Source of the DNA: a virus
Taxonomy: Duplodnaviria; Caudoviricetes
DNA: 64,000 nt
Strand: one strand, 5' to 3'
IMG/VR virus record: IMGVR_UViG_3300005611_000002
Coordinates: 1-64,000 of that record
Below are positions 1,261-46,810 of this stretch, piece by piece; the first letter of the stretch is position 1; every line of letters starts with the position of its first letter. The notes under the pieces were generated by a model. That model was not told the origin of the DNA. It did no database searches and was given only the letters and a program-made list of their open reading frames with translations. Both the position numbers and the translations under genes were made by a program.

Positions 1261-1337
1261 AGCGGAGTGGAGCAGTGGTCAGCTCGCCAGTCTCATAAAC
1301 TGGAGGTCGTAGGTTCGAATCCTACCTCTCGCAACCA
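1261..1337 (+). tRNA. tRNA-Met(CAT), possibly initiator-like
   Basis: Cloverleaf, ctCATaa loop, 1:72 mismatch, CCA. Confidence 0.85.
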
Positions 1338-1343
1338 AACAAT

Positions 1344-1419
1344 GCCCTTGTAGCTCAGAGGCCAGAGCAGCGCTCTTGTAAAGCGAAGGTCCGCGGTTCA
1401 AATCCGTGCTGGGGCACCA
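1344..1419 (+). tRNA. tRNA-Thr(TGT)
   Basis: Cloverleaf, ctTGTaa, CCA. Confidence 0.9.
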
Positions 1420-1426
1420 GAACAAT

Positions 1427-1501
1427 GTTCCTGTAGCTTAGCGGTAGAGCAAGACGCTCATAACGTCCAGGTCGTAGGTTCGATCCCTACCAGGAACACC
1501 A
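1427..1501 (+). tRNA. tRNA-Met or Ile2 (CAT)
   Basis: Cloverleaf, ctCATaa, CCA. Confidence 0.9.
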
Positions 1502-1575
1502 AGTAATAGGATCAGTTCAGCAACAAAACAAAACTTTTATTGGAAAAAAGAGCAAAGTGATCCTGATAGAATAAT

Positions 1576-1653
1576 GCGCTTGTGGGCAAATTGGTAAAGT
1601 CGCTCGGTTTAGGCCCGAGAGTTTTGGGGGTTCGAGTCCCTCCAGGCGCACCA
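1576..1653 (+). tRNA. tRNA-Leu(TAG), short variable region
   Basis: CTCGG-ttTAGgc-CCGAG, GTTCGA T-loop, CCA. Confidence 0.9.
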
Positions 1654-1663
1654 TTACTTTGAT

Positions 1664-1791
1664 GATACACTGAAGGTGCAAGGGTGACATATACCTTGGG
1701 CGAAAGCAGTAAAATAGAACGAAGGCCAAGTTCCGTACCTGTTAGTAGTTTAAGACAAGGTGGAGCTGGTTCGAGTCCAGCACAGTGTATC
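1664..1791 (+). ncRNA. Structured RNA with terminal stem and a tRNA-like T-arm
   Basis: GATACACTG/CAGTGTATC closing stem; GCTGG-TTCGAGT-CCAGC. Confidence 0.5.
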
Positions 1792-1807
1792 TTCTAAGTA
1801 ATGAATA

Positions 1808-1873
1808 TCCCGTGACTGGCGGAGCGTATGCCTGCAGGTGCGCTGAGACGGTTCAATTCCGTACACGGGGCCA
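1808..1873 (+). ncRNA. D-armless tRNA-like element ending in CCA
   Basis: CCCGTG/CACGGG-G-CCA, T-arm ACGG-TTCAATT-CCGT, one long middle hairpin. Confidence 0.55.
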
Positions 1874-2181
1874 AAATAGACTGGATATAATCACCCCTTG
1901 TGAGGGTGGCCCTAGCATCAGTACTGATGCTAGGTCAAAGCTGCAAACAGCCCAGTCTGCTGCACAAGGAGAGACCGGCAACTTGTGTAGAAGTATGCGG
2001 AAACGACTTGCGGATAACAGGTGGGCTCGCGGCATACACAGATATAGCAGTAACATGATGCGGAAGGTGCACTCTGAGTCATGCGAAATGCTCGTCGTAG
2101 TAGGGGTTGATCTCTAAAGGATCGGCTATGGCTGAGACGTTAAACAAGCCCCAGGAATTTTTATACGCAGCGGCAACTGCG

Positions 2182-2313
2182 TTCTCTGAGAGACTATCGT
2201 CTGAAACTTTGCCGAGTTTAGGATAGGTAGACTGTTTCGTCTAGCAAGGAAGGACACCGGCTGGTCTGGTCGGAGACACAGGTTCGAATCCTGTAGCAGT
2301 TTTGCTCTCAGAG
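2182..2313 (+). ncRNA. tRNA-Asp-like mimic (2230-2301) embedded in an extended stem, no CCA
   Basis: D-, anticodon- and T-arms present; loop TGGTCTG; outer stem TCTCTGAGAG/CTCTCAGAGA. Confidence 0.55.
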
Positions 2314-2323
2314 AGAAATTTAT

Positions 2324-2398
2324 ATCGGTGAAGGAAAATGGTAATCCGCAGGCCTCCAAAACCTTGAGAACTCGGTTCGATTCCGAGCACCGGTGCCA
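2324..2398 (+). tRNA. tRNA-Trp(CCA)
   Basis: ctCCAaa loop, T-arm, CCA. Confidence 0.85.
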
Positions 2399-2492
2399 AT
2401 AGCCAAGGTCCTAGACGCAGTGAAACTTCAGGCTTTGTATGGAGTGAGATAGCTAGGAGACCTGCCAGTAGGGAGAAACTGGCACTTATTTT

Positions 2493-2582
2493 GGAGAGGT
2501 GGCCGAGTGGTTTAAGGCTCTGTTCTTGAAAAGCAGCGTAGGCGAAAGTCTACCGTGGGTTCGAATCCCACCCTTTCCGCCA
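2493..2582 (+). tRNA. tRNA-Ser(TGA)
   Basis: Long variable arm, ctTGAaa, CCA. Confidence 0.95.
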
Positions 2583-2598
2583 ATAACGGGAGTGTTGA

Positions 2599-2757
2599 AT
2601 GAAAACTATTGATGAACTTGCTGAAGAATTTCTAATGAAAATGGATAGTGCTATTTGGACTAATCCTCCGAAAAACATGGTACCAATTTTTGTTATTGAT
2701 GAATTTGTAAAGTTCTTAAAAGAGAATACTGTAGATGATCCCACTGATCTAGACTGA
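2599..2757 (+). CDS. Hypothetical 52-aa protein (MKTIDELAEE...)
   Basis: GGGAG RBS, ATG 2599 to TGA 2757. Confidence 0.55.
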   Translation: MKTIDELAEEFLMKMDSAIWTNPPKNMVPIFVIDEFVKFLKENTVDDPTDLD

Positions 2758-2832
2758 GAGTTTGACCTAACTCGTCGAAGCGATCATGCATCATCTACCT
2801 GCTAGGAGAATAGGTCCCTCCTAGACAGTTTA

Positions 2833-2907
2833 GGGCCTGTAGTGCTAATGGGAAAACACTGGTTTTGCAATCCGGAGTTGAGGGTTCGATTCCCTCCAGG
2901 TCCACCA
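2833..2907 (+). tRNA. tRNA-Ala(TGC)
   Basis: G3:U70 pair, ttTGCaa, CCA. Confidence 0.9.
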
Positions 2908-2912
2908 AAAAC

Positions 2913-2947
2913 GCGGATGTAGCTCAATCGGCAGAGCGTCTGCTTGC
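2913..2947 (+). pseudogene. 5' half of tRNA-Gly(GCC), truncated in the anticodon
   Basis: GCGGATG-TAGCTCAATCGGCAGAGC-GTCTGC-TTGC then abrupt AT-rich sequence. Confidence 0.75.
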
Positions 2948-2990
2948 ATGAAATATTAAAATGTATAAATACTTCTGTATGGAGGTAGAT

Positions 2991-3638
2991 ATGCATTACA
3001 TAATTTATAAAATAACTAATAAAATTAACGGTAAAATTTATATCGGTAAACATCAAACAAAAGATTTGAATGATGGCTACATGGGCTCTGGTAAAAGATT
3101 AGGTCTTGCTATTGAAAAATATGGAATTGAGAATTTTGAAAAGAAAATTCTATTTCAATTTGATAATGAAGCTGACATGAATGCTAAAGAAGCTGAGTTA
3201 ATAACAGAAGAATTTGTAAAAGAAGATACTAATTATAATCTATGCCCCGGCGGTAAAGGCGGCTGGGGTTATATAAATTCCGAGGGTTTGAATCTTAGAA
3301 TAGGAATGATTCATTCAGAAGAATCGAGAAAAAAGATGGGGCACAAAGGTAATACATTTAGAAAAGGGACAAAATCTTCCGATGAAACTAAGAAAAAACT
3401 TAGTGAGATTATGCCAGAGAAGTTAAAAGGTAAACCCAAGTCTGAAGAACATAGAAAAAAGATATCTCAATCTTTAAAATCTAATAAACATCTTAAAGGT
3501 AAGAAGTTTCCAAATAGGAAAAAAAGAGATCCTATAAATTTTGAAATTGTGAATTGTCCTCATTGTAATAAATCTGGAAAGAAAAACGCAATGAAAAGGT
3601 GGCATTTCGATAATTGTAGAAATGCGGGTATGATGTAG
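2991..3638 (+). CDS. GIY-YIG (Seg-like) homing endonuclease with NUMOD3 repeats and C-terminal Zn ribbon
   Basis: IYKITNKINGKIYIG, YMGSG, YNL; HSEESRKKM repeats; CPHC...WHFDNC; late promoter and GGAGG. Confidence 0.9.
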   Translation: MHYIIYKITNKINGKIYIGKHQTKDLNDGYMGSGKRLGLAIEKYGIENFEKKILFQFDNEADMNAKEAELITEEFVKEDTNYNLCPGGKGGWGYINSEGLNLRIGMIHSEESRKKMGHKGNTFRKGTKSSDETKKKLSEIMPEKLKGKPKSEEHRKKISQSLKSNKHLKGKKFPNRKKRDPINFEIVNCPHCNKSGKKNAMKRWHFDNCRNAGMM

Positions 3639-3697
3639 TGTTAGCCTGCTTCCTTGCCAAGGAAGACGCGCGAGTTAGATTCTCGCTACCCGCTCCA
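3624..3697 (+). tRNA. tRNA-Gly(GCC), divergent, overlapping the endonuclease stop codon
   Basis: GCGGGTA/TACCCGC, CTTCC-ttGCCaa-GGAAG, TCCA end. Confidence 0.85.
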
Positions 3698-3724
3698 AAG
3701 ATAAATCATGAAGAGGAGTATATA

Positions 3725-4156
3725 ATGTCAGAATTGCGTATTGAACCGTTTACAAATGAATTCGGCCAAACGATTAATCCAGGTGATGAAGTAGTATATG
3801 TAGCAACAGGCTATTCTCATCAGGTGAATGTAAATCGTGGTCGTTATCAAGGCTTGTGGTATAACAACGTAACACGTACTCGTAAAGTAAAAGATACCGA
3901 CGGTAACGTTGTTATGGAAGAACGCTATGGCCGACAGTATCCTAAGCGTGAATATTACACTGAGATGGCTCCTACGGCAGTTCGTCTTGATAATGTTCCA
4001 AGAGGATATAAATACACAGAAGTTTGGAATGAAGAAAAACAACGTAAAGTCTGGACTAAAACAGATGAAATGCGTTATGGTACTACCACACTCCCGCGCA
4101 AACGAGTCTACAAGATTGATACCTCGATGCTGAATTTTGCGGGTAATACATTTTAA
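3725..4156 (+). CDS. Hypothetical protein
   Basis: GAGGAG RBS before ATG 3725. Confidence 0.75.
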   Translation: MSELRIEPFTNEFGQTINPGDEVVYVATGYSHQVNVNRGRYQGLWYNNVTRTRKVKDTDGNVVMEERYGRQYPKREYYTEMAPTAVRLDNVPRGYKYTEVWNEEKQRKVWTKTDEMRYGTTTLPRKRVYKIDTSMLNFAGNTF

Positions 4157-4161
4157 TATTT

Positions 4162-4235
4162 GGCCCATTGGTGTAATGGTAGCACGGCAGTCTGTCTAAC
4201 TGTTGGCAGGGGATCGATACCCCTATGGGTCGCCA
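4162..4235 (+). tRNA. tRNA-Asp(GTC)
   Basis: ctGTCta loop, GCCA end. Confidence 0.9.
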
Positions 4236-4241
4236 TTTTAG

Positions 4242-4270
4242 TTGACATTTGTTCCGAATCAGTATAATAT
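4242..4270 (+). promoter_or_regulatory. Early promoter with GAATC spacer
   Basis: TTGACA-tttgttccGAATCagta-TAATAT. Confidence 0.8.
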
Positions 4271-4276
4271 GCTGAT

Positions 4277-4735
4277 ATGATTGATAATAAAATACTTCAG
4301 CTTGCTCAGAACACAAGATCATGGGCGCTTGCTATAGCAAAAGATATAAAGCCCGATGATCCAAGAGGGTGGAATTCATCTCTTACAAACATGTGCGTCA
4401 TGTGTTCTACTCATCTAGCATATCACATGCATCATGCTGGATATACCGATGTTCAAATAATAGATGCTGGTATGCATACCTTCGTGATGCTCAATGATGT
4501 CGTAATAGACGTGACTGCGACTCAGTTTGGTGAATTTGATGATGTTCTAGTAATACGGTATAACGGCATCAAGGATAAAACTCTTATGTGGTCAGAAATT
4601 GAGGATCAACCTAAGATCAAAATAAAACCTTGGTGTGATAAGGAGTTTGGGCTTGAGGTGATGTGTGGTATAGATTCTATAATTTCAATGATGAAAATAC
4701 ATATTGATAAAGATTTATTCAAGTTTGATTTCTAG
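4277..4735 (+). CDS. Hypothetical protein (C...H...D-T.-QF motifs, papain/transglutaminase-like), probably leaderless
   Basis: ATG lies ~7 nt after the -10 box; no RBS. Confidence 0.65.
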   Translation: MIDNKILQLAQNTRSWALAIAKDIKPDDPRGWNSSLTNMCVMCSTHLAYHMHHAGYTDVQIIDAGMHTFVMLNDVVIDVTATQFGEFDDVLVIRYNGIKDKTLMWSEIEDQPKIKIKPWCDKEFGLEVMCGIDSIISMMKIHIDKDLFKFDF

Positions 4736-4752
4736 TAGCATTGTAAAATAAT

Positions 4753-4828
4753 GCGAGATTAGCTCAGCTGGTAGAGCAGGTCGTTTACACCGATCAGGTC
4801 GGCGGTTCGAACCCGTCATCTCGTACCA
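4753..4828 (+). tRNA. tRNA-Val(TAC)
   Basis: Canonical cloverleaf, CCA. Confidence 0.95.
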
Positions 4829-4924
4829 ATAATCGAAAAAGGGTTTGTAGTAGAGAGTGGCAAACCAGAAACCCTGCGGCAATAGCCAATACCCATTAAG
4901 ATCGCCTGTTAGGTCACTCATTTT

Positions 4925-4958
4925 TGCCCCTTCGTCTAGCGGCAGGACGTCTGATTTG
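4925..4958 (+). pseudogene. 5' half of a tRNA-Gln-type gene, truncated in the anticodon loop
   Basis: TGCCCCT-TCGTCTAGCGGCAGGAC-GTCTGA-TTT then TATAAATA. Confidence 0.7.
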
Positions 4959-4984
4959 TATAAATAAGTGTAAGGAGAATTAAA

Positions 4985-5617
4985 ATGATCTATACACTTT
5001 ATAAAACTACAAATATAATAAATGGAAAATTCTACATCGGAATACATAAGACTTCCGATCCAAATGATGCCTACTTGGGAAGTGGTAAAATATTGAAATT
5101 AGCTATTCTTAAATACGGTCAACACAATTTCAAAAAAGAAATACTTGCTACATTTGATACATTAGAAGATGCACGAAAAGCTGAAAACGCAATTGTAAAT
5201 GAAGAATTTGTTCATTCTGAACAAAACTATAATATAGGAATTGGTGGAGGATTGGGTGGAAGTGACTTGAATGGGTTTACATTTTCCGGCCATACTCATA
5301 CTGAAAAAGCTAGACAAAAAATAGGCGAAGCAAATAAATTTAAAGTCCTTACTGATAAAGGGCGGCAAGCAATAATTAGAAATAACACAGAAAATGAAGA
5401 TCGAAAACGTAAGATATCAGAAACATTAACTGGTGTACAAAAAAGTGATGAATACAAAAAAAATCATTCTATGGTTATGAAAGAATATTATTCTAAAAAT
5501 CCAAATAAGACTGGTATCGGTATACCAAAACAAAGAATCAAATGCCCGTATTGTGGTAAGAAAGGCTCGCCTAACAATATGAGACGATGGCATTTTGATA
5601 ATTGTAAATTGAAATGA
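4985..5617 (+). CDS. GIY-YIG (Seg-like) homing endonuclease
   Basis: LYKTTNIINGKFYIG, YLGSG, C-terminal CPYC...WHFDNC. Confidence 0.9.
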   Translation: MIYTLYKTTNIINGKFYIGIHKTSDPNDAYLGSGKILKLAILKYGQHNFKKEILATFDTLEDARKAENAIVNEEFVHSEQNYNIGIGGGLGGSDLNGFTFSGHTHTEKARQKIGEANKFKVLTDKGRQAIIRNNTENEDRKRKISETLTGVQKSDEYKKNHSMVMKEYYSKNPNKTGIGIPKQRIKCPYCGKKGSPNNMRRWHFDNCKLK

Positions 5618-5621
5618 ATAA

Positions 5622-5702
5622 TGGGAAGTAAGGGAATTGGTATACCTGCCTGCCTGACTTTGATTCAGGAGTTTGCGCGTTCGAACCGCGCCTTCCCAGC
5701 CA
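5622..5702 (+). tRNA. tRNA-Gln(TTG), enlarged D region
   Basis: TGGGAAG/CTTCCCA, CCTGA-ctTTGat-TCAGG, GCCA. Confidence 0.85.
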
Positions 5703-5888
5703 TTCATAAATGAATACACTAGAAGTAAAGCAGCCTGCTGCAACAGGTCATTACTTTGAACAATCCACGAACCAGTGATTGCAGTCACAAATAAGGCGCA
5801 GAGCTGATAACTCTGAGATGTTGAAGTGGTTCGTCAACCTTGGCGTAAGCCATGTGGTCTAAGGGATCGTGTATTCTTTTATGAATGG
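5700..5888 (+). ncRNA. Structured spacer RNA closed by a ~19-bp stem
   Basis: CCATTCATAAATGAATACAC / GTGTATTCTTTTATGAATGG. Confidence 0.55.
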
Positions 5889-5978
5889 ATAGGTGGTAGA
5901 GTGGCTGAATACACTCCCCTGGAACGGGAGTCTACGTGTGAAAGCGTAGCGGGGGTTCAAATCCCTCCCTATCCGCCA
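5887..5978 (+). tRNA. tRNA-Ser(GGA)
   Basis: Long variable arm, ctGGAac, CCA. Confidence 0.9.
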
Positions 5979-5987
5979 ATATAAATA

Positions 5988-6521
5988 ATGATATATACAT
6001 TATGCGTATTTTCAATTTCATACGGAAACGCATCAATGCAACTAGACAACGTAAAAACACTTTTCGCAGTTATTGCGAGCGTGGTTACAATATTAGGAGG
6101 TGGATATACATTATCAGACAAAATAGGTTTTAAATGGACACGCCCGGTTTTGACTTGGGCGCCAGAACATTTTAACATTTCCAATGGTTCTATAGATGAA
6201 CCATTTCGAGCTGTAGTAGCACGAGAAAAACATCGAGACGATTGTGAAGTCACTGGATTTTCAATTAGTGTACAAGATTCAAATTTAGAATTGTTTCCTG
6301 CTACTCCATCTAATACAAAATTTAGTGGACCTGCTTCAGATACCATAGATAAGTATGCTTATAAATTTTATATTAGAGAACAAGACTATGATATAATTTC
6401 TACTGGAGAAGCTACATTTATGGGTGTAATTAACTATTCTTGTCCTGAAGGTACACAAAGAATACCATATCCTCCAAACTTGAAGTTTACAATATATAGT
6501 TCTAGCAATAGACCTGACTGA
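5988..6521 (+). CDS. Hypothetical membrane-anchored protein (start may be 6036)
   Basis: ORF with N-terminal hydrophobic segment; late promoter upstream. Confidence 0.65.
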   Translation: MIYTLCVFSISYGNASMQLDNVKTLFAVIASVVTILGGGYTLSDKIGFKWTRPVLTWAPEHFNISNGSIDEPFRAVVAREKHRDDCEVTGFSISVQDSNLELFPATPSNTKFSGPASDTIDKYAYKFYIREQDYDIISTGEATFMGVINYSCPEGTQRIPYPPNLKFTIYSSSNRPD

Positions 6522-6573
6522 AACAAATCCTCCAATTGTATAAATAAAAGGTTACACAAATGTAACTATACAA

Positions 6574-7386
6574 TTGGAGGAAATGAATATGAATAAACTA
6601 TTCGCTATAGCAGCCTCCATATCTATTTTGGCTTCATCTGCATTCGCTTGGGAGCCAGAAGAAATGAACGCTGTTATTGATCAGACTAACTTTATTGTAA
6701 ATAGAGGGTGTTCAGGTACACTAATATCGCTTGAACCACCTCTTATCCTAACCAATCATCATTGCATTGACCGCTTTGTTCGTTCTGTTAACAGAGATGT
6801 CACTGATGAAAATGGAAAAATCTCAACCGTCAAAGAACTCAAACTAGATCCAGTTACTGTTGCTCAAGTGTCTTATTCAGGACACGAAACAGTTGGTTCG
6901 AGTACTTATGTTACCGAGATCGTAGCAAGACAGAAAAATCGTGACCTAGCAGTTCTTCAACTGAGAGCAGAAAAGGTTCCATATACCATCGTATCTCCAT
7001 TACTTCCTGAAGGTGAAAAGACCGAAAGAGGAGAACGTGTATGGGCAGTTGGGAATCCAGCAGGTCTTGATGCGACTGTGACTACTGGAATTATCAGTTC
7101 AGTCACAAGAACGTTTCAGTTTCCTTGGGCTGAAAATGAGGATCTACCCATGATACAAACTGACGTAGGTATCTTTGGTGGAAACTCCGGCGGTGCACTC
7201 TATGATACGCAAGGAAGACTCGTTGGTGTTCCTGCAGCTGGTCATAGACAAGCAACTCACCTCGGTCTCGCAATTCCAACTTCTATCGTATGGGAAGTCC
7301 TTGCAAAAAACTGCCTTGCTGAACACGTCGGTGGAACGAATAACGAATTATGTAATGAAGATGAAGAGTCTGAAACCGAAGAATGA
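6574..7386 (+). CDS. Trypsin-like (S1/HtrA-type, no PDZ) serine protease with signal peptide (start likely 6583/6589)
   Basis: TNHHC, DLAVL, GNP, GNSGG motifs. Confidence 0.9.
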   Translation: MEEMNMNKLFAIAASISILASSAFAWEPEEMNAVIDQTNFIVNRGCSGTLISLEPPLILTNHHCIDRFVRSVNRDVTDENGKISTVKELKLDPVTVAQVSYSGHETVGSSTYVTEIVARQKNRDLAVLQLRAEKVPYTIVSPLLPEGEKTERGERVWAVGNPAGLDATVTTGIISSVTRTFQFPWAENEDLPMIQTDVGIFGGNSGGALYDTQGRLVGVPAAGHRQATHLGLAIPTSIVWEVLAKNCLAEHVGGTNNELCNEDEESETEE

Positions 7387-7586
7387 CTGACATAATTGTC
7401 CTGATAGTCACCACACTAATAACTACAGGTTATGCTGCACTTATGTCTGCCTTAGCAGATAAGAGTCCAGAATTGGCTGCTGTTGGGGCAATTTTCGTAA
7501 TAATTCTATGGTTTGTAATAGGCCAGATTTTTTTTTCTAGGATGGGTGCCAGAGCGGCCGATCGGGGCTCCCTGCTAAGGAGTTGA
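7383..7586 (+). CDS. Small two-TM membrane protein (3' end runs into tRNA-Ser)
   Basis: Two hydrophobic helices; ATGA overlap with the protease gene. Confidence 0.55.
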   Translation: MTDIIVLIVTTLITTGYAALMSALADKSPELAAVGAIFVIILWFVIGQIFFSRMGARAADRGSLLRS

Positions 7587-7631
7587 AGGGCGAAAGTTCT
7601 TCCCTGGGTTCGAATCCCAGTCCATCCGCCA
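7540..7631 (+). tRNA. tRNA-Ser(GCT)
   Basis: Long variable arm, ctGCTaa, CCA. Confidence 0.9.
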
Positions 7632-7639
7632 CTTTTTAG

Positions 7640-7699
7640 TTGACAAATGCGAAGAATCAGTATACTATGATAATAGGTAAAACGAAAGGAACTTATATC
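7640..7699 (+). promoter_or_regulatory. Early promoter-RBS cassette
   Basis: TTGACA...GAATCAGTA-TACTAT-GATAATAGGTAAAACGAAAGGAAC; related copies at 8062, 9392, 53068, 53461. Confidence 0.85.
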
Positions 7700-8065
7700 A
7701 TGCGAAATGGACTTGTCATCGGAACACTTGCTTTTGTCGGTTTGGTAGTTGCTGCTACTCCGGTCTTGCACTATACGACAATGGATACTGCAACATTTAC
7801 TGTTGATCATCGGGAGCGAGTCACATCACGGACTAGCGAAGGAAATTCTTCTGCTCGATATATGGTCTGGGCTCAGTATGAAAATGGTACGTCTGAAGTC
7901 TTTGAAAATACCGATTCACTCCTTTCACTCAAGTTTAACAGCGCCGATCTTCAAGGTCTTATGAAAGAGGGTTCGGTTTGTCAGGCAACTGTGAATGGTT
8001 TTCGATTTCCTTTCCTGAGCATGAATCGTAACATTATTGATGCTGAGTGTGAAAATAACGGTTGA
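7700..8065 (+). CDS. DUF1523-like membrane-anchored protein
   Basis: N-terminal TM; VFENTDS..KFNSADLQ motif. Confidence 0.6.
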   Translation: MRNGLVIGTLAFVGLVVAATPVLHYTTMDTATFTVDHRERVTSRTSEGNSSARYMVWAQYENGTSEVFENTDSLLSLKFNSADLQGLMKEGSVCQATVNGFRFPFLSMNRNIIDAECENNG

Positions 8066-8119
8066 CAAACGAGTAGAATCAGTATAGTATCTAATCATGA
8101 TAAACGAAAGGAACCTATC

Positions 8120-8308
8120 ATGAACGTCTACAAACTGACTGTACTCGCCAACGGCATGTCGGAAATGGCTCGCATTCATCCGAATGATGTAATTGCGAAT
8201 AACCTTGCTCGTGTTTCAGAGCTTGTAGCAGCGTATGGTTCTACTTGGTCCTCGAAGTTGACCAAGACCGATTTGATGGTAGTTCGGTACTACCTCGCGA
8301 ATAGATAA
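8120..8308 (+). CDS. Hypothetical early protein
   Basis: Promoter 8062 and GAAAGGA RBS. Confidence 0.75.
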   Translation: MNVYKLTVLANGMSEMARIHPNDVIANNLARVSELVAAYGSTWSSKLTKTDLMVVRYYLANR

Positions 8309-8367
8309 AAATATCTAGTTGACAAAGAAATAAAACAGTATATAATAGAATGGAAAATAAATAATAT

Positions 8368-8442
8368 CGGAAGCGAAGAGGCTGGGTCATCGGCTACGTT
8401 TGGGGCGTAGAGAGCTGGGTTCGATTCCCGGGCTTCCGACCA
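8368..8442 (+). tRNA. tRNA-Pro(TGG)
   Basis: CGGAAGC/GCTTCCG, ttTGGgg, ACCA. Confidence 0.85.
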
Positions 8443-8726
8443 AAGGTCCCCTTCTTGGGGTTTAGTAGGTAAGGAAAGTCTGAACATGCCAAGTGATCAT
8501 AGGCATATGTTCAGAGCAGTTTGGCCAAACTGTAAAAGGAGCATGGGCACCCTGGAAACTTGTGAAGCGAAAGGGAGATACCGCACCTGCCTACGTTATA
8601 TTTCTATCAGAGTTGACTGTTGTATGATGGGTGTCGGTGTAGGAAGAAATCAACCCGCGTTACACTAGCGCGAAGGGTTTCTCATATAGAGAATCAGTGT
8701 GACAGCTCGGAGAGACGAGCAACTAT

Positions 8727-8802
8727 GCGGGGATAGCTCAGTTGGTAGAGCGTCTGATTTCCACTCAGAAGGTCGCGAGTTCGAACCTCGTTCTCCGCTC
8801 CA
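8727..8802 (+). tRNA. tRNA-Gly(TCC)
   Basis: Canonical cloverleaf, TCCA. Confidence 0.95.
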
Positions 8803-8819
8803 AATTCTACGAGAGTATT

Positions 8820-9044
8820 ATGAAAACACCAGAATGGTCGCCTTTCAATACTATGTATCCGAACAATTAAGTTCCTGTAACTAAATATAATTACAAAAGA
8901 ATTGTAGAACCTTCTTCAAGGATTAAATCAAAAATAGACTTTGTCGAAGATTGGCAAGAGAGAGCAAATAAAGCTATCGAAGCTTATAAGAATACAACTG
9001 AGTCTAGAATAAGCCCAGGTCAAGTATACGACTTTTATGCGTAA
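8820..9044 (+). pseudogene. Small ORF interrupted by an in-frame TAA (8868-8870)
   Basis: MKTPEWSPFNTMYPNN*VPVTKY...QVYDFYA* in one frame. Confidence 0.5.
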
Positions 9045-9045
9045 C

Positions 9046-9360
9046 TTACCTATCGTATGGTTCTTGTATTACATCATCAAATTCTTCATTTACATAGCCT
9101 CCACCAGCTACTCCATGAAGTTTTTCTTTTCCTCGAGACCAGGAAGTCACTCCAAGTATTGCCCCCATTGATAGATGGAACAAACCACCAGATCCTAATG
9201 TCAGAGGCATCCACTGTTGAGCAACTACACCAGATACAAAATATCCTTGCCAGATTGTCCAGAAAATTGGACCTATAATGAAATCAAATAGACAGATACT
9301 GATGTAGAGCCAACCTATTGAAGGTCTCCATTTGTTTTGTATCCAAGTTTCTTTTTTCAT
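9046..9360 (-). CDS. 3TM (GTA-type) holin-like protein
   Basis: KWRPSIGWLY motif, hydrophobic helices, RGKEK tail; minus-strand late-promoter-like site upstream. Confidence 0.65.
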   Translation of the reverse strand: MKKETWIQNKWRPSIGWLYISICLFDFIIGPIFWTIWQGYFVSGVVAQQWMPLTLGSGGLFHLSMGAILGVTSWSRGKEKLHGVAGGGYVNEEFDDVIQEPYDR

Positions 9361-9449
9361 GGCTTGTAGCTCTTTTATTTGTATTTATTAGTTGACAAAT
9401 TTCAAGAATCAGTATACTATCATAATAGGTAATACGAAAGGAACCTATC

Positions 9450-9692
9450 ATGACTCTGACTTATAAATCCGCCGAACTTCTTATTCGCTTGATCAATGAA
9501 GCAGATTTCGAAGGTGAAAACGGAATGTGTGAAGCTTTGACTAAATTTACTTCAGCAGAACGTGGTAATCTTGTTGATCTAAAAAAGAAGGGTTTTGTTG
9601 AAACTTGCGAAGAAGAAGGTGGTAGCTACTGGGTAATCTTTAAAGAACCTGCGCGGGCTCTTTACGAAACAATTAAAGCAATTAAAGGTTGA
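9450..9692 (+). CDS. Hypothetical early protein (winged-helix-like)
   Basis: Promoter cassette 9392 with RBS. Confidence 0.75.
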   Translation: MTLTYKSAELLIRLINEADFEGENGMCEALTKFTSAERGNLVDLKKKGFVETCEEEGGSYWVIFKEPARALYETIKAIKG

Positions 9693-9708
9693 TATAAATA
9701 GAAATAAT

Positions 9709-9786
9709 GCTTCCGTAGCTCAGTTGGATTAGAGCAGGGAACTTCTAATTCTCAGGTCGTGGGTTCGAGTCCTACCGGGAGCGCCA
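9709..9786 (+). tRNA. tRNA-Arg(TCT)
   Basis: Canonical cloverleaf, CCA. Confidence 0.95.
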
Positions 9787-9791
9787 ATTAT

Positions 9792-9868
9792 GCCCCACTA
9801 CCCCAATAGGCAGAGGGATGCGACTTAAAATCGTTTCAGTCTCGGTTCGAATCCGAGGTGGGGTACCA
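9792..9868 (+). tRNA. tRNA-Leu(TAA), short variable region
   Basis: ctTAAaa loop, CCA. Confidence 0.9.
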
Positions 9869-9874
9869 AATTCA

Positions 9875-9968
9875 GGTCCTATAGTTTAACGGTAGAACAC
9901 CCGTCTTATAAGCGGCATTGACACCAGATTAGTGTGCGGTCCGGGTTCGAGTCCCGGTAGGACCACCA
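9875..9968 (+). tRNA. tRNA-Ile(TAT) with long extra arm
   Basis: GGTCCTA/TAGGACC, CCGT-ctTATaa-GCGG, >20-nt variable region, ACCA. Confidence 0.8.
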
Positions 9969-11766: not shown

Positions 11767-12723
11767 ATGAAATTTTTACTTTCAACCGTTGCTGCTCTGT
11801 CTTTAGCAGCAACCGCACACGCTCGTGATAATGTTCAAATCGCAGGTTCATCAACAGTTCTACCTTATGCATCTATCGTAGCAGAGGTATTCGGTGAAAA
11901 TACAGATTTTCCAACGCCAGTTGTCGAGTCTGGTGGATCATCTGCCGGCTTGAAGCGATTCTGTGAAGGACTCGGTACAAATACGATCGATATTGCAAAT
12001 GCTTCTCGAGCAATTCGTGAAAAAGAAATCAAAGCGTGTGCAGAAAATGGAGTAGATTCCATCACTGAAGTTCGAATTGGATATGACGGTATTGTATTTG
12101 CTTCAGACATTGATGGGAATAGTTTTGAATTTACACCAAAAGATATCTACCTTGCTTTGAATGCAAAAAGCACCGCTTCAACCTGGTCAGAAGTAAATCC
12201 AGAGTTTCCAGATCAGCCAATCATGGTGTTTATTCCCGGAACAAAGCACGGTACTCGTGAAGTCTTTGAAGAGAAAGTTCTCCTCGTTGGTTGTGAAGAA
12301 GTAAATGGACCGCCGAAAACAGATGAAGCAGAAGATGCTTGCATGGATGTACGAAAAGATGGTCGGTCCGTGGATATTGACGGAGACTATACCGAGACAC
12401 TTGCAAGGATTGATTCAAATGAGAATGGTATTGGTGTATTCGGTCTTGCATTCTATGAAAACAACACTGATAAGCTGCAGGTAGCTACGATGAATGGAGT
12501 ATTACCGAGTACCGAGACAATTTCTTCTGGTGAGTATCCAGTAAGTCGTCCGTTGTTCTTCTACATCAAGAATGCTCATCTCGACTCAATTCCAGGATTG
12601 AGAGAATATGCACAATTCTTTATGGCTGACGAGATTGCAGGTCCTGATGGTCCTCTTGCTCAGTATGGGCTGGTTTCAGATCCTAAAATTGCAGAGACGC
12701 AAAAGAAACTGCAGGATATGTAG
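11767..12723 (+). CDS. pstS: Phosphate ABC transporter substrate-binding protein
   Basis: Signal peptide; IAGSSTV, GGSSAG, ANASR, HGTRE, YPVSRPLFFY. Confidence 0.9.
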   Translation: MKFLLSTVAALSLAATAHARDNVQIAGSSTVLPYASIVAEVFGENTDFPTPVVESGGSSAGLKRFCEGLGTNTIDIANASRAIREKEIKACAENGVDSITEVRIGYDGIVFASDIDGNSFEFTPKDIYLALNAKSTASTWSEVNPEFPDQPIMVFIPGTKHGTREVFEEKVLLVGCEEVNGPPKTDEAEDACMDVRKDGRSVDIDGDYTETLARIDSNENGIGVFGLAFYENNTDKLQVATMNGVLPSTETISSGEYPVSRPLFFYIKNAHLDSIPGLREYAQFFMADEIAGPDGPLAQYGLVSDPKIAETQKKLQDM

Positions 12724-12764
12724 TATCATAAATGTCACACTAAACATCAATGGCTAAATAATAG

Positions 12765-12793
12765 TTGACATTTGGCCATTGATGGATTATATA
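12765..12793 (+). promoter_or_regulatory. Sigma70 promoter of tmRNA within an inverted repeat
   Basis: TTGACA-17-TATATA; flanking CATCAATGGCTAAAT / ATTTGGCCATTGATG. Confidence 0.65.
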
Positions 12794-12799
12794 TAAACC

Positions 12800-13182
12800 G
12801 TAACGTTGAAACAACGTGGACACATACTGGACTGCGGGGCGGTACCGCACTCGTCCACCAAAAGGATACATAATGAAACAATATTCAAAAGAATATTTAG
12901 ATTTTGAATTGAAACACACTAGAGAGTTGTTAGAACTTCATCACAAAACAAAAGATGAAGAGCTAAGACTTCAAATTTTAGAGGTTAGGAAAACTCTTGA
13001 GCGTATCTTTTTGATGGGCGAGAAATAGGATCGACAGGTGTGAAAGTGAAGTGGAGTTACCGTGTTGACCTACGTTATTCGGTCACCCAAACTAACTGCA
13101 AACACAAACGCAGCTCCTAAGGCTCTTGCTCTCGCAGCATGAGTACTGTGGGTTCGGTAGAACCTAGAAACAGAATCTACCC
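12800..13182 (+). ncRNA. ssrA: Circularly permuted (two-piece) tmRNA; tag (A)NTNAAPKALALAA
   Basis: Acceptor piece ends CTCGTCC-ACCA (12860); coding piece starts GGGCGAG-AAATAGGATCGAC (13016); G3:U70; T-loop GGCGGTA; tag frame 13098-13142. Confidence 0.92.
12873..13028 (+). CDS. 51-aa ORF inside the tmRNA intervening segment
   Basis: AAGGA RBS, ATG 12873, helical charged sequence, TAG inside the tmRNA 5' end. Confidence 0.6.
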   Translation: MKQYSKEYLDFELKHTRELLELHHKTKDEELRLQILEVRKTLERIFLMGEK

Positions 13183-13270
13183 GTCATGACCCTCGCGTTA
13201 TTGGGTTTCGGGTATGAGCTCCACCCTCAACGGGCTCACTTATTTTTCTCAACAACAAAGGAACATTCGA

Positions 13271-13603
13271 ATGAAAAATACTATGTTTGGTGCCATTGCT
13301 GCACTCAGTCTTTCTACTGCAGCTGCACAGGCTGGTGATCTTGCTTTCATCGGTAAAACAGAATACGCTTTCGAAGCAGAAACTTTTAGCCTCGAAGGCG
13401 GTGCAGAGTATACAGTCAACGCGTTCACTTTTTCTGGTGTAGCAATGTTTGAAGATACTCAGACCACTGACTTTGATTTTATTGGAGTCGAAGTAGGTGT
13501 AGGTTATGCATTCACTGATAATGTGTCTGCTTACATTCGTCTCGAAGCAGATGATGAACTCGATCACACCGAAACTGTTGTAGGAGCCTCCTTCAGCTTC
13601 TAA
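13271..13603 (+). CDS. Small outer-membrane beta-barrel/porin-like protein
   Basis: Signal peptide, alternating beta-strand pattern, C-terminal VVGASFSF. Confidence 0.7.
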   Translation: MKNTMFGAIAALSLSTAAAQAGDLAFIGKTEYAFEAETFSLEGGAEYTVNAFTFSGVAMFEDTQTTDFDFIGVEVGVGYAFTDNVSAYIRLEADDELDHTETVVGASFSF

Positions 13604-13640
13604 TAAATAGAAGTAATATTCTTACTATTGGAGGAGTGAT

Positions 13641-14216
13641 ATGTCAGATAACTTGAAAAAATTGACTTGGGAAAACCACAAGAAAGCAGAAAGAGCCGCT
13701 TTCATGCAAAGGTTGATCAAAAAGAATATCACTCCTCCACAATACTACAAGTACCTCAAGAACCAAGCAGCTGCTTATATCGCGCTTGAGCATCACGCAA
13801 CACTCGCTGGTTGGTTTGATTTTGAAAATGCAGATCTATATCCATTGAAGCGCGGTGCCGCCATACTCGATGATATAGATGAAATGGAAAGAACTCATGG
13901 CTTTACAGATGCTCCAATACTTTCCACCACAACTACATATGTAGATTACATTCAACAAATACGAGAAGATCGAGATAAGCTATTCGCGCATGTGTATGTC
14001 CGTCACATGGGTGATCTGTCAGGTGGTCAAATGATCAAAAGACTTATTCCCGGTCCTACTCGAGTCTATGAATTTGATACTGATGTAGATCAACTGAAAC
14101 AAGCAGTCAGAAAAAGATTACATGATGGTCTTGTAGATGAAGCAAATCAGTGCTTCATTATGGTTCAAAACTTTTTACAAGAATTGGAAGATAGCTTTGT
14201 CGGAGACATGGGATAA
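13641..14216 (+). CDS. hemO: Heme oxygenase
   Basis: LKKLTWENHKKAE, AHVYVRHMGDLSGGQMI. Confidence 0.92.
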   Translation: MSDNLKKLTWENHKKAERAAFMQRLIKKNITPPQYYKYLKNQAAAYIALEHHATLAGWFDFENADLYPLKRGAAILDDIDEMERTHGFTDAPILSTTTTYVDYIQQIREDRDKLFAHVYVRHMGDLSGGQMIKRLIPGPTRVYEFDTDVDQLKQAVRKRLHDGLVDEANQCFIMVQNFLQELEDSFVGDMG

Positions 14217-14856
14217 GGTAGTTCCGCTATCAGAAAAGATTGAGTCACTTTTCAATCAACACTTTCAGCACGAAAAAACTACAGAAGAGTTTGAAGGCTG
14301 GAAAGACTCATTTTGGTCGAGTGATGTAATTCGTAAGTGTCACCTCAAGACAATTGATCATCGAGAAACTCGAAAAATGTGGCTCATGCACATCAACATT
14401 TTTCCAAAACCTCACATTCATCTACCGATACTCGGTTTTGATATTGTTGCTGGACCCAAGAAAATCACAGGTGCATTCTTCGACTATTCCACACACGCCT
14501 ATCATCCGTATAGTGATTACATCGAAATGGCTACGCGGAGTTTAGTTTGGAATAAACCACGTGAACTTCCAGACTGGGCACAGGAAATTTTTTCAGGAAA
14601 TATGATTGCTGCCGGCAACATTCGCGATGAAGAAATAGATCAACTTTGTTCAGTTACCTACGATTTGATAGAGCATTATTTGGCAAATATAGATGTGAAT
14701 GCTTTTCCGAGCGAAGAAAATCTCACTGATTGGCATAATTACTATTGTAAAAATCAAAAGAAAAATCCTCATTTACACAGATCAATTTTACAAATGGGTA
14801 TATCAGAAAAAGATAAAGATAAATACGTAAACGAGATACTATTTGAAGAGATCTAA
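14137..14856 (+). CDS. pcyX: Ferredoxin-dependent bilin reductase, PcyX-like (true start probably ~14197)
   Basis: MHINIFP, PILGFD, GAFFDYS, RELPDWA..IFS, YCKNQKKNPH; adjacent to hemO. Confidence 0.85.
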   Translation: MKQISASLWFKTFYKNWKIALSETWDKVVPLSEKIESLFNQHFQHEKTTEEFEGWKDSFWSSDVIRKCHLKTIDHRETRKMWLMHINIFPKPHIHLPILGFDIVAGPKKITGAFFDYSTHAYHPYSDYIEMATRSLVWNKPRELPDWAQEIFSGNMIAAGNIRDEEIDQLCSVTYDLIEHYLANIDVNAFPSEENLTDWHNYYCKNQKKNPHLHRSILQMGISEKDKDKYVNEILFEEI

Positions 14857-45808: not shown

Positions 45809-46810
45809 ATGGTTGATCATGTCGACATGCACTATGCTTCAATACTTTCTTCGAGATTGGAGCGCTTCAAAATTGTTTCGAGAAATCCAGTCAAAATCAA
45901 TTTTAGGTGTCCCGTTTGCGGTGATTCTCAAAAATCGCGTTCGAAGGCCCGTGGATGGCTTCTTGAACGCAACAATGCCTTTTACTTCTATTGTCATAAT
46001 TGTGGTGCGAGCCAAGGCTTTTCTTATTTTCTGAAAAACCTCGATGGTATAGTCTACAATGACTATGTATCTGAAAAGTTTCTGAAGGGTGAAAAGAAAC
46101 CAAAATCTGACGATGGTAAATTTGCTACTCAGACTAAATTTAGCGGTGATCCACTTCGAAAGTTGACAAAAATCAGTCAACTCAAGCATGATCATCCTCT
46201 CAAGAAATACATACTCAAACGACAAATACCTTCCGACCAACACTACAGACTCTATTATGCTCCAAAGTTCAAGACTTGGATCAATAGTATCATACCAAAT
46301 AAATTTGGATACTTCAAGAAAGACGAGCCACGACTCGTTATACCTTTCCTAGACCAAGACAAAAAGATCTTTGGTGTCTCTGCTCGTGGCTTTGATCCAA
46401 AAGCTCCTAGATACATCACGATCATGTTTGACGATAGACCCAAGATTTTTGGTCTTGATACAGTCAATTTCAATAAAACATATCTTGTAGTTGAAGGCGC
46501 TATTGATAGTTTTTTCGTAAAAAATGCTGTTGCCATGGCTGGTGCTGAAGGGAATACGAACGCGTTACAGAATGTTGAAAATGCGATTTTTGTTTTTGAC
46601 GCAGAGCCGAGAAACAAAGAAATCCATAAGCGAATGGAGAAGGTAATAGATGCTGGCCATAGAATTTGCATATGGCCTTCTGATGTTCCAGGCAAAGACA
46701 TCAACGAGGTGTATATGAATGGACTTACAAACGTAGATGAACTGATTCGAGAAAATACATATAAAGGCTTGCAAGCCACACTGAAACTTACTGAATGGAG
46801 AAAAACATGA
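45809..46810 (+). CDS. 61: DNA primase gp61
   Basis: RCPVCGDS..KARG, CHNCG, EG.IDS, KDIN. Confidence 0.93.
   Translation: MVDHVDMHYASILSSRLERFKIVSRNPVKINFRCPVCGDSQKSRSKARGWLLERNNAFYFYCHNCGASQGFSYFLKNLDGIVYNDYVSEKFLKGEKKPKSDDGKFATQTKFSGDPLRKLTKISQLKHDHPLKKYILKRQIPSDQHYRLYYAPKFKTWINSIIPNKFGYFKKDEPRLVIPFLDQDKKIFGVSARGFDPKAPRYITIMFDDRPKIFGLDTVNFNKTYLVVEGAIDSFFVKNAVAMAGAEGNTNALQNVENAIFVFDAEPRNKEIHKRMEKVIDAGHRICIWPSDVPGKDINEVYMNGLTNVDELIRENTYKGLQATLKLTEWRKT

Follow-up and report, generated by a model that had tools for sequence, protein, structure and literature searches.

A small protein gene appears to have taken over the excised spacer of a phage permuted tmRNA gene

We report a permuted, alpha-type phage tmRNA gene in which a real gene for a small protein appears to have come to occupy the spacer excised during maturation, an explanation of the locus as a whole to which we assign a probability of roughly three in four. 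The window, by which we mean the entire 64,000-nucleotide stretch of DNA analyzed, is the beginning of a phage record that is complete at 194,645 bp and bears direct terminal repeats. The analysis establishes four things: the anatomy of the tmRNA gene, the selection acting on the coding frame in its spacer, the physical linkage of the encoded protein's family to permuted tmRNA genes, and the variable position at which members of that family stop relative to the predicted RNase P site.

A preliminary description of this DNA, made from the letters alone, had proposed a permuted tmRNA gene, and both ARAGORN and Rfam bear this out. ARAGORN calls a permuted tmRNA at 12767-13233 with the tag ANTNAAPKALALAA, and two Rfam covariance models score above their cut-offs, namely tmRNA_permuted (RF04321) at 12800-13142 (98.5 bits vs a cut-off of 47) and alpha_tmRNA (RF01849) at 12761-13184 (85.7 bits vs 50). 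The elements of the locus are as follows.

12765..12793, + strand: predicted sigma-70-like promoter of the tmRNA precursor (TTGACA at 12765-12770, a 17-nt spacer, TATATA at 12788-12793)
12800..12860, + strand: acceptor piece of the two-piece tmRNA (RF04321 and RF01849 alignments, ARAGORN, and a pattern match at 12829-12860)
Within 12800..12860, + strand: 5' leader and helix-2 strand
12833-12849, + strand: T-arm (read from the sequence)
12850-12856, + strand: acceptor 3' strand, CTCGTCC
12857-12860, + strand: encoded ACCA
12861..13015, + strand: intervening segment (IVS), 155 nt, GC content 0.28, left out of the mature tmRNA
12862..12866, + strand: Shine-Dalgarno sequence AAGGA, 6 nt 5' of the ATG and inside the 5' strand of the closing helix
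12873..13028, + strand: spacer open reading frame (ORF) of 51 codons, ATG at 12873 and TAG at 13026-13028, its last 13 nt overlapping the coding piece
13016..13184, + strand: coding piece (ARAGORN and Rfam; 3' end from the alpha_tmRNA model)
13016-13022, + strand: acceptor 5' strand, GGGCGAG, with the predicted RNase P site before 13016
Within 13016..13184, + strand: conserved GAAATAGGATCGAC
13098-13142, + strand: tag frame, ANTNAAPKALALAA plus stop (ARAGORN)
Within 13016..13184, + strand: 3' domain of the coding piece

The tag reading frame closes with a proteolysis-type ...LAA followed by a stop, and the acceptor stem comprises seven pairs, G13018:U12854 (the G3:U70 pair) among them. Because this stem covaries across relatives (CTCGTCC/GGGCGAG, CGACTCC/GGGGTCG, CGCCTCC/GGGGGCG, and CATCTCC/GGGGATG), we set the mature 5' end of the coding piece at 13016; the ACCA end at 12860, the GGGCGAG start, the G3:U70 pair, and the tag all lie where the preliminary description had put them. 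A group I intron or homing-endonuclease insertion can be rejected, since neither an intron core nor an endonuclease domain was found: no Rfam intron family occurs at the tmRNA locus, and the spacer ORF has no Pfam or PHROG match. The complete phage genome encodes no SmpB, so the phage tmRNA must rely on host factors.

The precursor would be transcribed from the predicted promoter at 12765..12793, with a start near 12800, and relatives carry TTGACA/TATAAAT in the same position. Our consensus promoter scan passed over this site, as its rule requires a T at position 6 of the -10 hexamer. The source is a 195-kb marine phage, and 19 tRNA genes lie at 1262-9968 of the window (ARAGORN). An auxiliary-gene cluster spanning 11767-14856 surrounds the tmRNA gene, with the following members.

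11767-12723: PstS-type phosphate-binding protein, a neighbor of the tmRNA gene
About 13271-13603: small porin-like protein (weak Porin_4 match)
13641-14216: heme oxygenase, a neighbor of the tmRNA gene
14137-14856: ferredoxin-dependent bilin reductase, a neighbor of the tmRNA gene

A nucleotide search of the tmRNA locus against deposited phage genomes gave no match. The PstS protein matches one in Pelagibacter phage Mosig, where the tmRNA spacer is short, and one in record CAKLQF020000007.1 (L318; numbers of this form, such as L004, L122, L320, and L329, are labels of comparison loci). The latter record is labelled 'Acinetobacter phage MD-2021a', carries a bacterial-looking pstSCAB operon with aroP and ipdC, and may be a mislabelled bacterial contig.

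Examination of the spacer itself upheld what had been described at this locus: a 155-nt segment with an AAGGA, a 51-codon ORF, and a TAG lying inside the coding piece, of which it forms nucleotides 11-13. The ORF occupies 92% of the AT-rich IVS (shuffle p = 0.012), and its Shine-Dalgarno sequence begins 2 nt past the CCA end. The proposed end-to-end pairing of the spacer, with the Shine-Dalgarno sequence inside it, is likewise recovered in the minimum free energy (MFE) fold, where 12859-12869 pair with 13003-13013 (z = -4.9); the 3' strand of this closing helix consists of the last conserved codons of the ORF and pairs with the Shine-Dalgarno region. In relatives that encode the same protein family, this helix shows covariation in the form of compensatory substitutions. 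A 70-aa ORF starting from the GTG at 12816 was rejected, because it runs across the acceptor piece and lacks conservation.

Several lines of comparison point to selection on the protein. A peptide-based scan of contigs from viruses and metagenomes, together with a protein search, supplied the close relatives. Over a 46-codon core, pN/pS is 0.17 in frame vs 1.07 and 4.88 in the two other frames, and variable columns fall 5/3/14 by codon position in the ORF's family (p = 0.009). The IVS of the window is 88-91% identical to that of two relatives, compared with 65-83% for the acceptor piece and 60-74% for the coding piece, and in both relatives the acceptor stems, T-arms, and tags all differ from those of the window. 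A profile search of 1.8 billion representative proteins returned 15 matches, 13 of them credible small proteins with intact frames and 41-69% identity to the window protein. Their alignment contains eleven invariant residues, spread over residues 8-42, and the conserved core comprises residues 1-46, with nothing conserved beyond; no broken copy of the ORF occurs in any context examined. The preliminary description had proposed comparing related phages for ORF conservation and dN/dS, and on both counts the result favors a gene, with purifying selection confined to the ORF's own frame and homologs recognizable down to 41% identity. AlphaFold2 predicts helices at residues 6-26 and 29-50 (mean pLDDT 86.9), so that the 51-aa product is modeled as a two-helix hairpin; searches of Pfam, PHROGs, and the ESM Atlas were uninformative for it, as was a Foldseek comparison with the PDB, which returned only generic helical hairpins. 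Judged by these comparisons, the spacer ORF is a real, selected protein gene, and we infer that it is expressed.

The window locus also proves, on the evidence of a sequence survey, to be one case of a wider phage pattern in which long tmRNA spacers are filled by small genes. Searching viral sequences with a pattern for the alpha-type acceptor piece yielded 120 loci, with spacers of 5 to 224 nt, at least 95 nt in 32 of 111. Among these 32 long spacers, 21 hold a spacer-filling ORF, defined as one whose start is no more than 30 nt from the CCA end and which takes up at least 70% of the spacer, and 12 of 26 long-spacer sequence clusters do better than dinucleotide shuffles at p <= 0.1 (binomial 2.5e-6; Fisher 6e-6). 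The same acceptor pattern applied to alphaproteobacterial genomes gave 120 loci, of which 115 allowed the coding piece to be located; the IVS is below 40 nt in 93 and reaches 95 nt in none, which sustains the claimed contrast in length between the 155-nt phage spacer and its bacterial counterparts (<95 nt in 115/115). A second pattern, ACCA-[A/T]AAGGA, found 68 viral loci, with a spacer-filling ORF in 64 of the 67 evaluable ones.

These spacer ORFs can be sorted into about 30 families unrelated to one another, whose products of 25-114 aa in many cases include a membrane-like stretch. Ten further multi-sequence families have in-frame pN/pS values of 0.08-0.42 and a third-position excess, off-frame values for the spacer-gene families being mostly 0.65-4.9, with a few lower; summed over families, variable columns are distributed 85/53/165 by codon position (p = 5e-15). 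The architecture recurs as well: nearly every family has a closing helix of 8-13 bp, formed between the bases after the ACCA and those before the UGAU-GGGG boundary, with the Shine-Dalgarno sequence inside its 5' strand or directly following it, and with the ORF's final codons supplying the 3' strand.

To place the hairpin-protein family, we fetched the DNA of every homolog for which it could be fetched, and in 13 of 13 checked contexts the gene is either inside a permuted tmRNA gene or no more than about 200 nt away from one. Nine are in the spacer (the window, the L122 type, L130, L321, L322, L323, L324, L328, and L329) and four are beside the tmRNA gene, at a distance of up to about 200 nt (L129/L133, L325, L326, and L327). 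The tmRNA is of the alpha type in L321-L324 and L328, and of the beta type in L329 (RF01850, 95 bits); among the neighbors, the protein gene lies downstream of the tmRNA in L325 and L326 and upstream of a beta-type tmRNA in L327. The genes scoring best as beta type (RF01850) are at L329:1467-1883 and L327:402-812, with the family in the spacer of the first and just upstream of the second, so alpha- and beta-type tmRNA genes have spacer cargo in common. From these contexts, the 46-residue core, a predicted helical hairpin, defines an unnamed family whose members keep a physical linkage to permuted tmRNA genes of phages.

Linkage of this kind invites the reading that the hairpin protein is a factor dedicated to phage trans-translation, assisting, for example, the phage tmRNA in its competition for host SmpB or ribosomes, and that a single transcript would serve to make the protein in step with the tmRNA. 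Besides the unbroken linkage, which holds at 41-90% protein identity and across both tmRNA types, the lack of SmpB in the complete phage genome speaks for it. We nevertheless regard such a role as rather unlikely. The roughly 30 unrelated families in the same slot cannot all be tmRNA factors, and the hairpin protein has no family, fold, or atlas match. A location beside the tmRNA is also seen in an unrelated spacer family: in OM43 phage Melnitz, a 57%-identical member is annotated as an ordinary gene and lies immediately before the tmRNA promoter. Furthermore, in L129/L133 the hairpin-protein gene sits in a decayed tmRNA remnant, with fused acceptor strands and a truncated coding piece, beside a second, newer, and complete tmRNA gene; this remnant is one route from the spacer to a position beside the tmRNA, so that linkage may be historical and not functional.

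The tandem tmRNA-like units of L129:2780-3600 (also L133:100-900) merit description in their own right. The array opens with a promoter and leader, then an acceptor 3' strand without a T-arm; a spacer with an 83-nt tRNA-like gene of odd anticodon follows and leads into GGGGTCG, which is fused to CGACTCCACCA. Beyond this lie the spacer that holds the hairpin-protein gene, a coding piece cut short, a terminator, and a complete permuted tmRNA with the tag ANANKAPEMALAA, an arrangement that looks like a snapshot of tmRNA gene turnover. At another locus, L323:1050-1469, the spacer is 233 nt long, its hairpin-protein ORF starts only 4 nt past the ACCA, 74 nt separate the end of this ORF from the coding piece, and a second called ORF (1244-1438) overlaps the end of the first.

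A different proposal concerns the stop codon. The preliminary description had suggested that RNase P cleavage turns the spacer ORF into a non-stop mRNA, with intact peptide made only from unprocessed precursor, as a possible feedback circuit. In the form considered here, the product would be tagged by the tmRNA from the same precursor, and the intact peptide would report unprocessed precursor or low trans-translation capacity. The geometry behind this proposal stands, as the stop at 13026-13028 lies 3' of the 5' end that covariation places at 13016, and cleavage there would leave the window ORF without a stop. Across the family, too, the ORF runs past the cleavage site in 6 of 7 located spacer contexts, so non-stop products may yet have a role, and the constant linkage to tmRNA genes would fit.

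That this geometry was selected as a feedback circuit is a separate claim, and comparison of related phages does not support it. Measured from the cleavage site, the stop codon of the hairpin family ends at +13 in the window and L130, +27 in L322 and L324, +55 in the L122 type (where a 1-nt insertion destroys the UAG), +78 in L321, and -74 in L323; neither this position nor the tail sequence past residue 46 is conserved. In four relatives the gene lies outside a spacer altogether, and about 22 of 32 spacer-gene families stop before the predicted RNase P site, either at the UGA of the UGAU-GGGG boundary or at a stop of their own. The conserved boundary sequence offers stops in two frames, a UGA in one (UGAU before G1) and in the second a UAG (GAAAUAGGA), with the third reading on. 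The UAG of GAAAUAGGA, a tmRNA motif, is near-invariant and is the stop that the window ORF uses, as will any ORF in that frame. Two of three frames pass the site by default, only two or three independent frame events lie behind the stop positions of the hairpin family, and the stop classes across families (about 11 UGA, 11 own stop at 11-28 nt upstream of the cleavage site, 8 UAG, and 2 read-through) match what three frames give, which led us to reject an enrichment of the +13 class as a sign of selection. In addition, a ribosome following closely would cover the acceptor 5' strand and delay cleavage, making full-length product likelier. We consider a selected circuit quite improbable; its appearance seems to follow from the reading frame, in which the conserved tmRNA sequence places the stop inside the coding piece, and the comparisons give no sign of an evolved device. 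An extended form of the idea, in which the hairpin protein is itself a trans-translation factor, translation of the spacer competes with RNase P cleavage, non-stop peptides are tagged, and feedback results, seems to us equally doubtful. Under it, the level of intact protein would read out tmRNA maturation or rescue capacity during infection.

Least probable by far is the reading in which the frame is open by chance and the spacer, structured and AT-rich, is conserved only as RNA. The good fold (z = -4.9), the constraint that the conserved closing helix places on the first and last codons, and an internal hairpin with a possible re-pairing change in L130 speak for it, but it is already contradicted by the third-position excess, a pN/pS that is low in frame and about 1 or higher in the off-frame controls, the profile-search homologs, the alignment, in which conservation of the protein is still present at 41-57% identity with invariant residues across the core, and the want of any broken copy.

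We prefer, over a selected circuit, co-transcriptional translation on the uncleaved precursor, and from the layout of the locus we infer an order of translation first and processing second. One promoter would yield a precursor that serves both as stable-RNA precursor and as mRNA. Ribosomes would start on the growing transcript while the 3' strand of the closing helix is still to be made, and would complete the ORF on unprocessed precursor; the closing helix and acceptor stem would then form and block initiation, after which tRNA-processing enzymes (RNase P at 13016) would free the two tmRNA pieces. Three points weigh against the small-gene reading and this order of events. The Shine-Dalgarno sequence is base-paired in the folded precursor and could silence the ORF; the hairpin-protein ORF of L321 has no Shine-Dalgarno sequence, and that of L323 starts so near the CCA end (4 nt); and the ORF in a comparable bacterial rRNA spacer, discussed below, is reported as probably silent.

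Two-piece tmRNAs are encoded by marine T4-like myophages, including Melnitz and the pelagimyophages, and the available portion of the Melnitz paper describes a tmRNA and a glutamine riboswitch and makes no mention of a spacer ORF (PMC9004378). Melnitz resembles the window in having an alpha-type permuted ssrA with its own promoter in a large marine myophage with tRNA genes; it differs in its glutamine riboswitch, as that portion of the paper describes it, none being found in the window by Rfam search. Its tmRNA has a 142-nt spacer with an unannotated 54-codon ORF (L320:1505-1669; MZ577097.1 about 46096-46260) behind a GGAG, which reads on into the coding piece, and the GenBank record annotates no CDS inside the tmRNA. 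Homologs of this ORF in marine metagenomes are 76-98% identical, and nearly all are 54 aa long.

The closest analog is the IVS of Coxiella burnetii 23S rRNA, which, like that of the window, is a stem-closed spacer with a protein ORF, cut out without religation. The host RNA there is an rRNA and excision is by RNase III, whereas in the window tRNA-processing enzymes would do the excising. The phage spacer ORFs also differ from S23p, the Coxiella ORF, in showing clear purifying selection and in belonging to many families. According to the abstract of the study, S23p is probably not translated in vivo (PMC4990558).

Other cargo of tmRNA genes includes T-loop group I introns with or without homing-endonuclease genes, a spacer tRNA-Ala, and a spacer repeat element, the tRNA and the repeat being the only spacer contents given in the tmRNA database paper (PMC11915505). 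These cases share with the window a tmRNA gene that tolerates foreign sequence removed during maturation; unlike the introns, the window cargo involves no splicing or endonuclease, and is a 51-aa helical protein in the permutation gap. Transcripts that are both a functional RNA and a small-protein mRNA are familiar from SgrS/SgrT and RNAIII/hld, where the ORF is in the mature RNA; that of the window is in the part discarded from it. In the literature searched, we found no description of protein genes in tmRNA spacers. Particular to the present analysis are the strict tmRNA linkage of the hairpin family across alpha and beta types and an explicit test of the non-stop idea.

Spacers of permuted tmRNAs have been treated as disposable, and annotation pipelines mask them after a tmRNA call, yet in the window it is the spacer, as the part that encodes a protein, which shows stronger conservation than the mature RNA. 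With dozens of unrelated small phage genes in the same slot, the tmRNA precursor would be bifunctional and a hidden reservoir of micro-proteins. This raises a question of order, that of translation versus tRNA-type processing on one RNA, and the strict linkage to tmRNA makes the hairpin family a candidate for a new component in how phages control the rescue of ribosomes. The same layout is present in a cultured system, phage Melnitz on OM43 strain H5P1.

Two further spacers illustrate the range of the cargo. The longest seen (369 nt) encodes, at L155:4526-4867, a 114-aa protein with membrane-like stretches and no Pfam or PHROG match, and the 63-aa spacer ORF at L004:8744-8932 belongs to Pfam DUF6356 (E = 4e-11), a family otherwise seen as ordinary genes.
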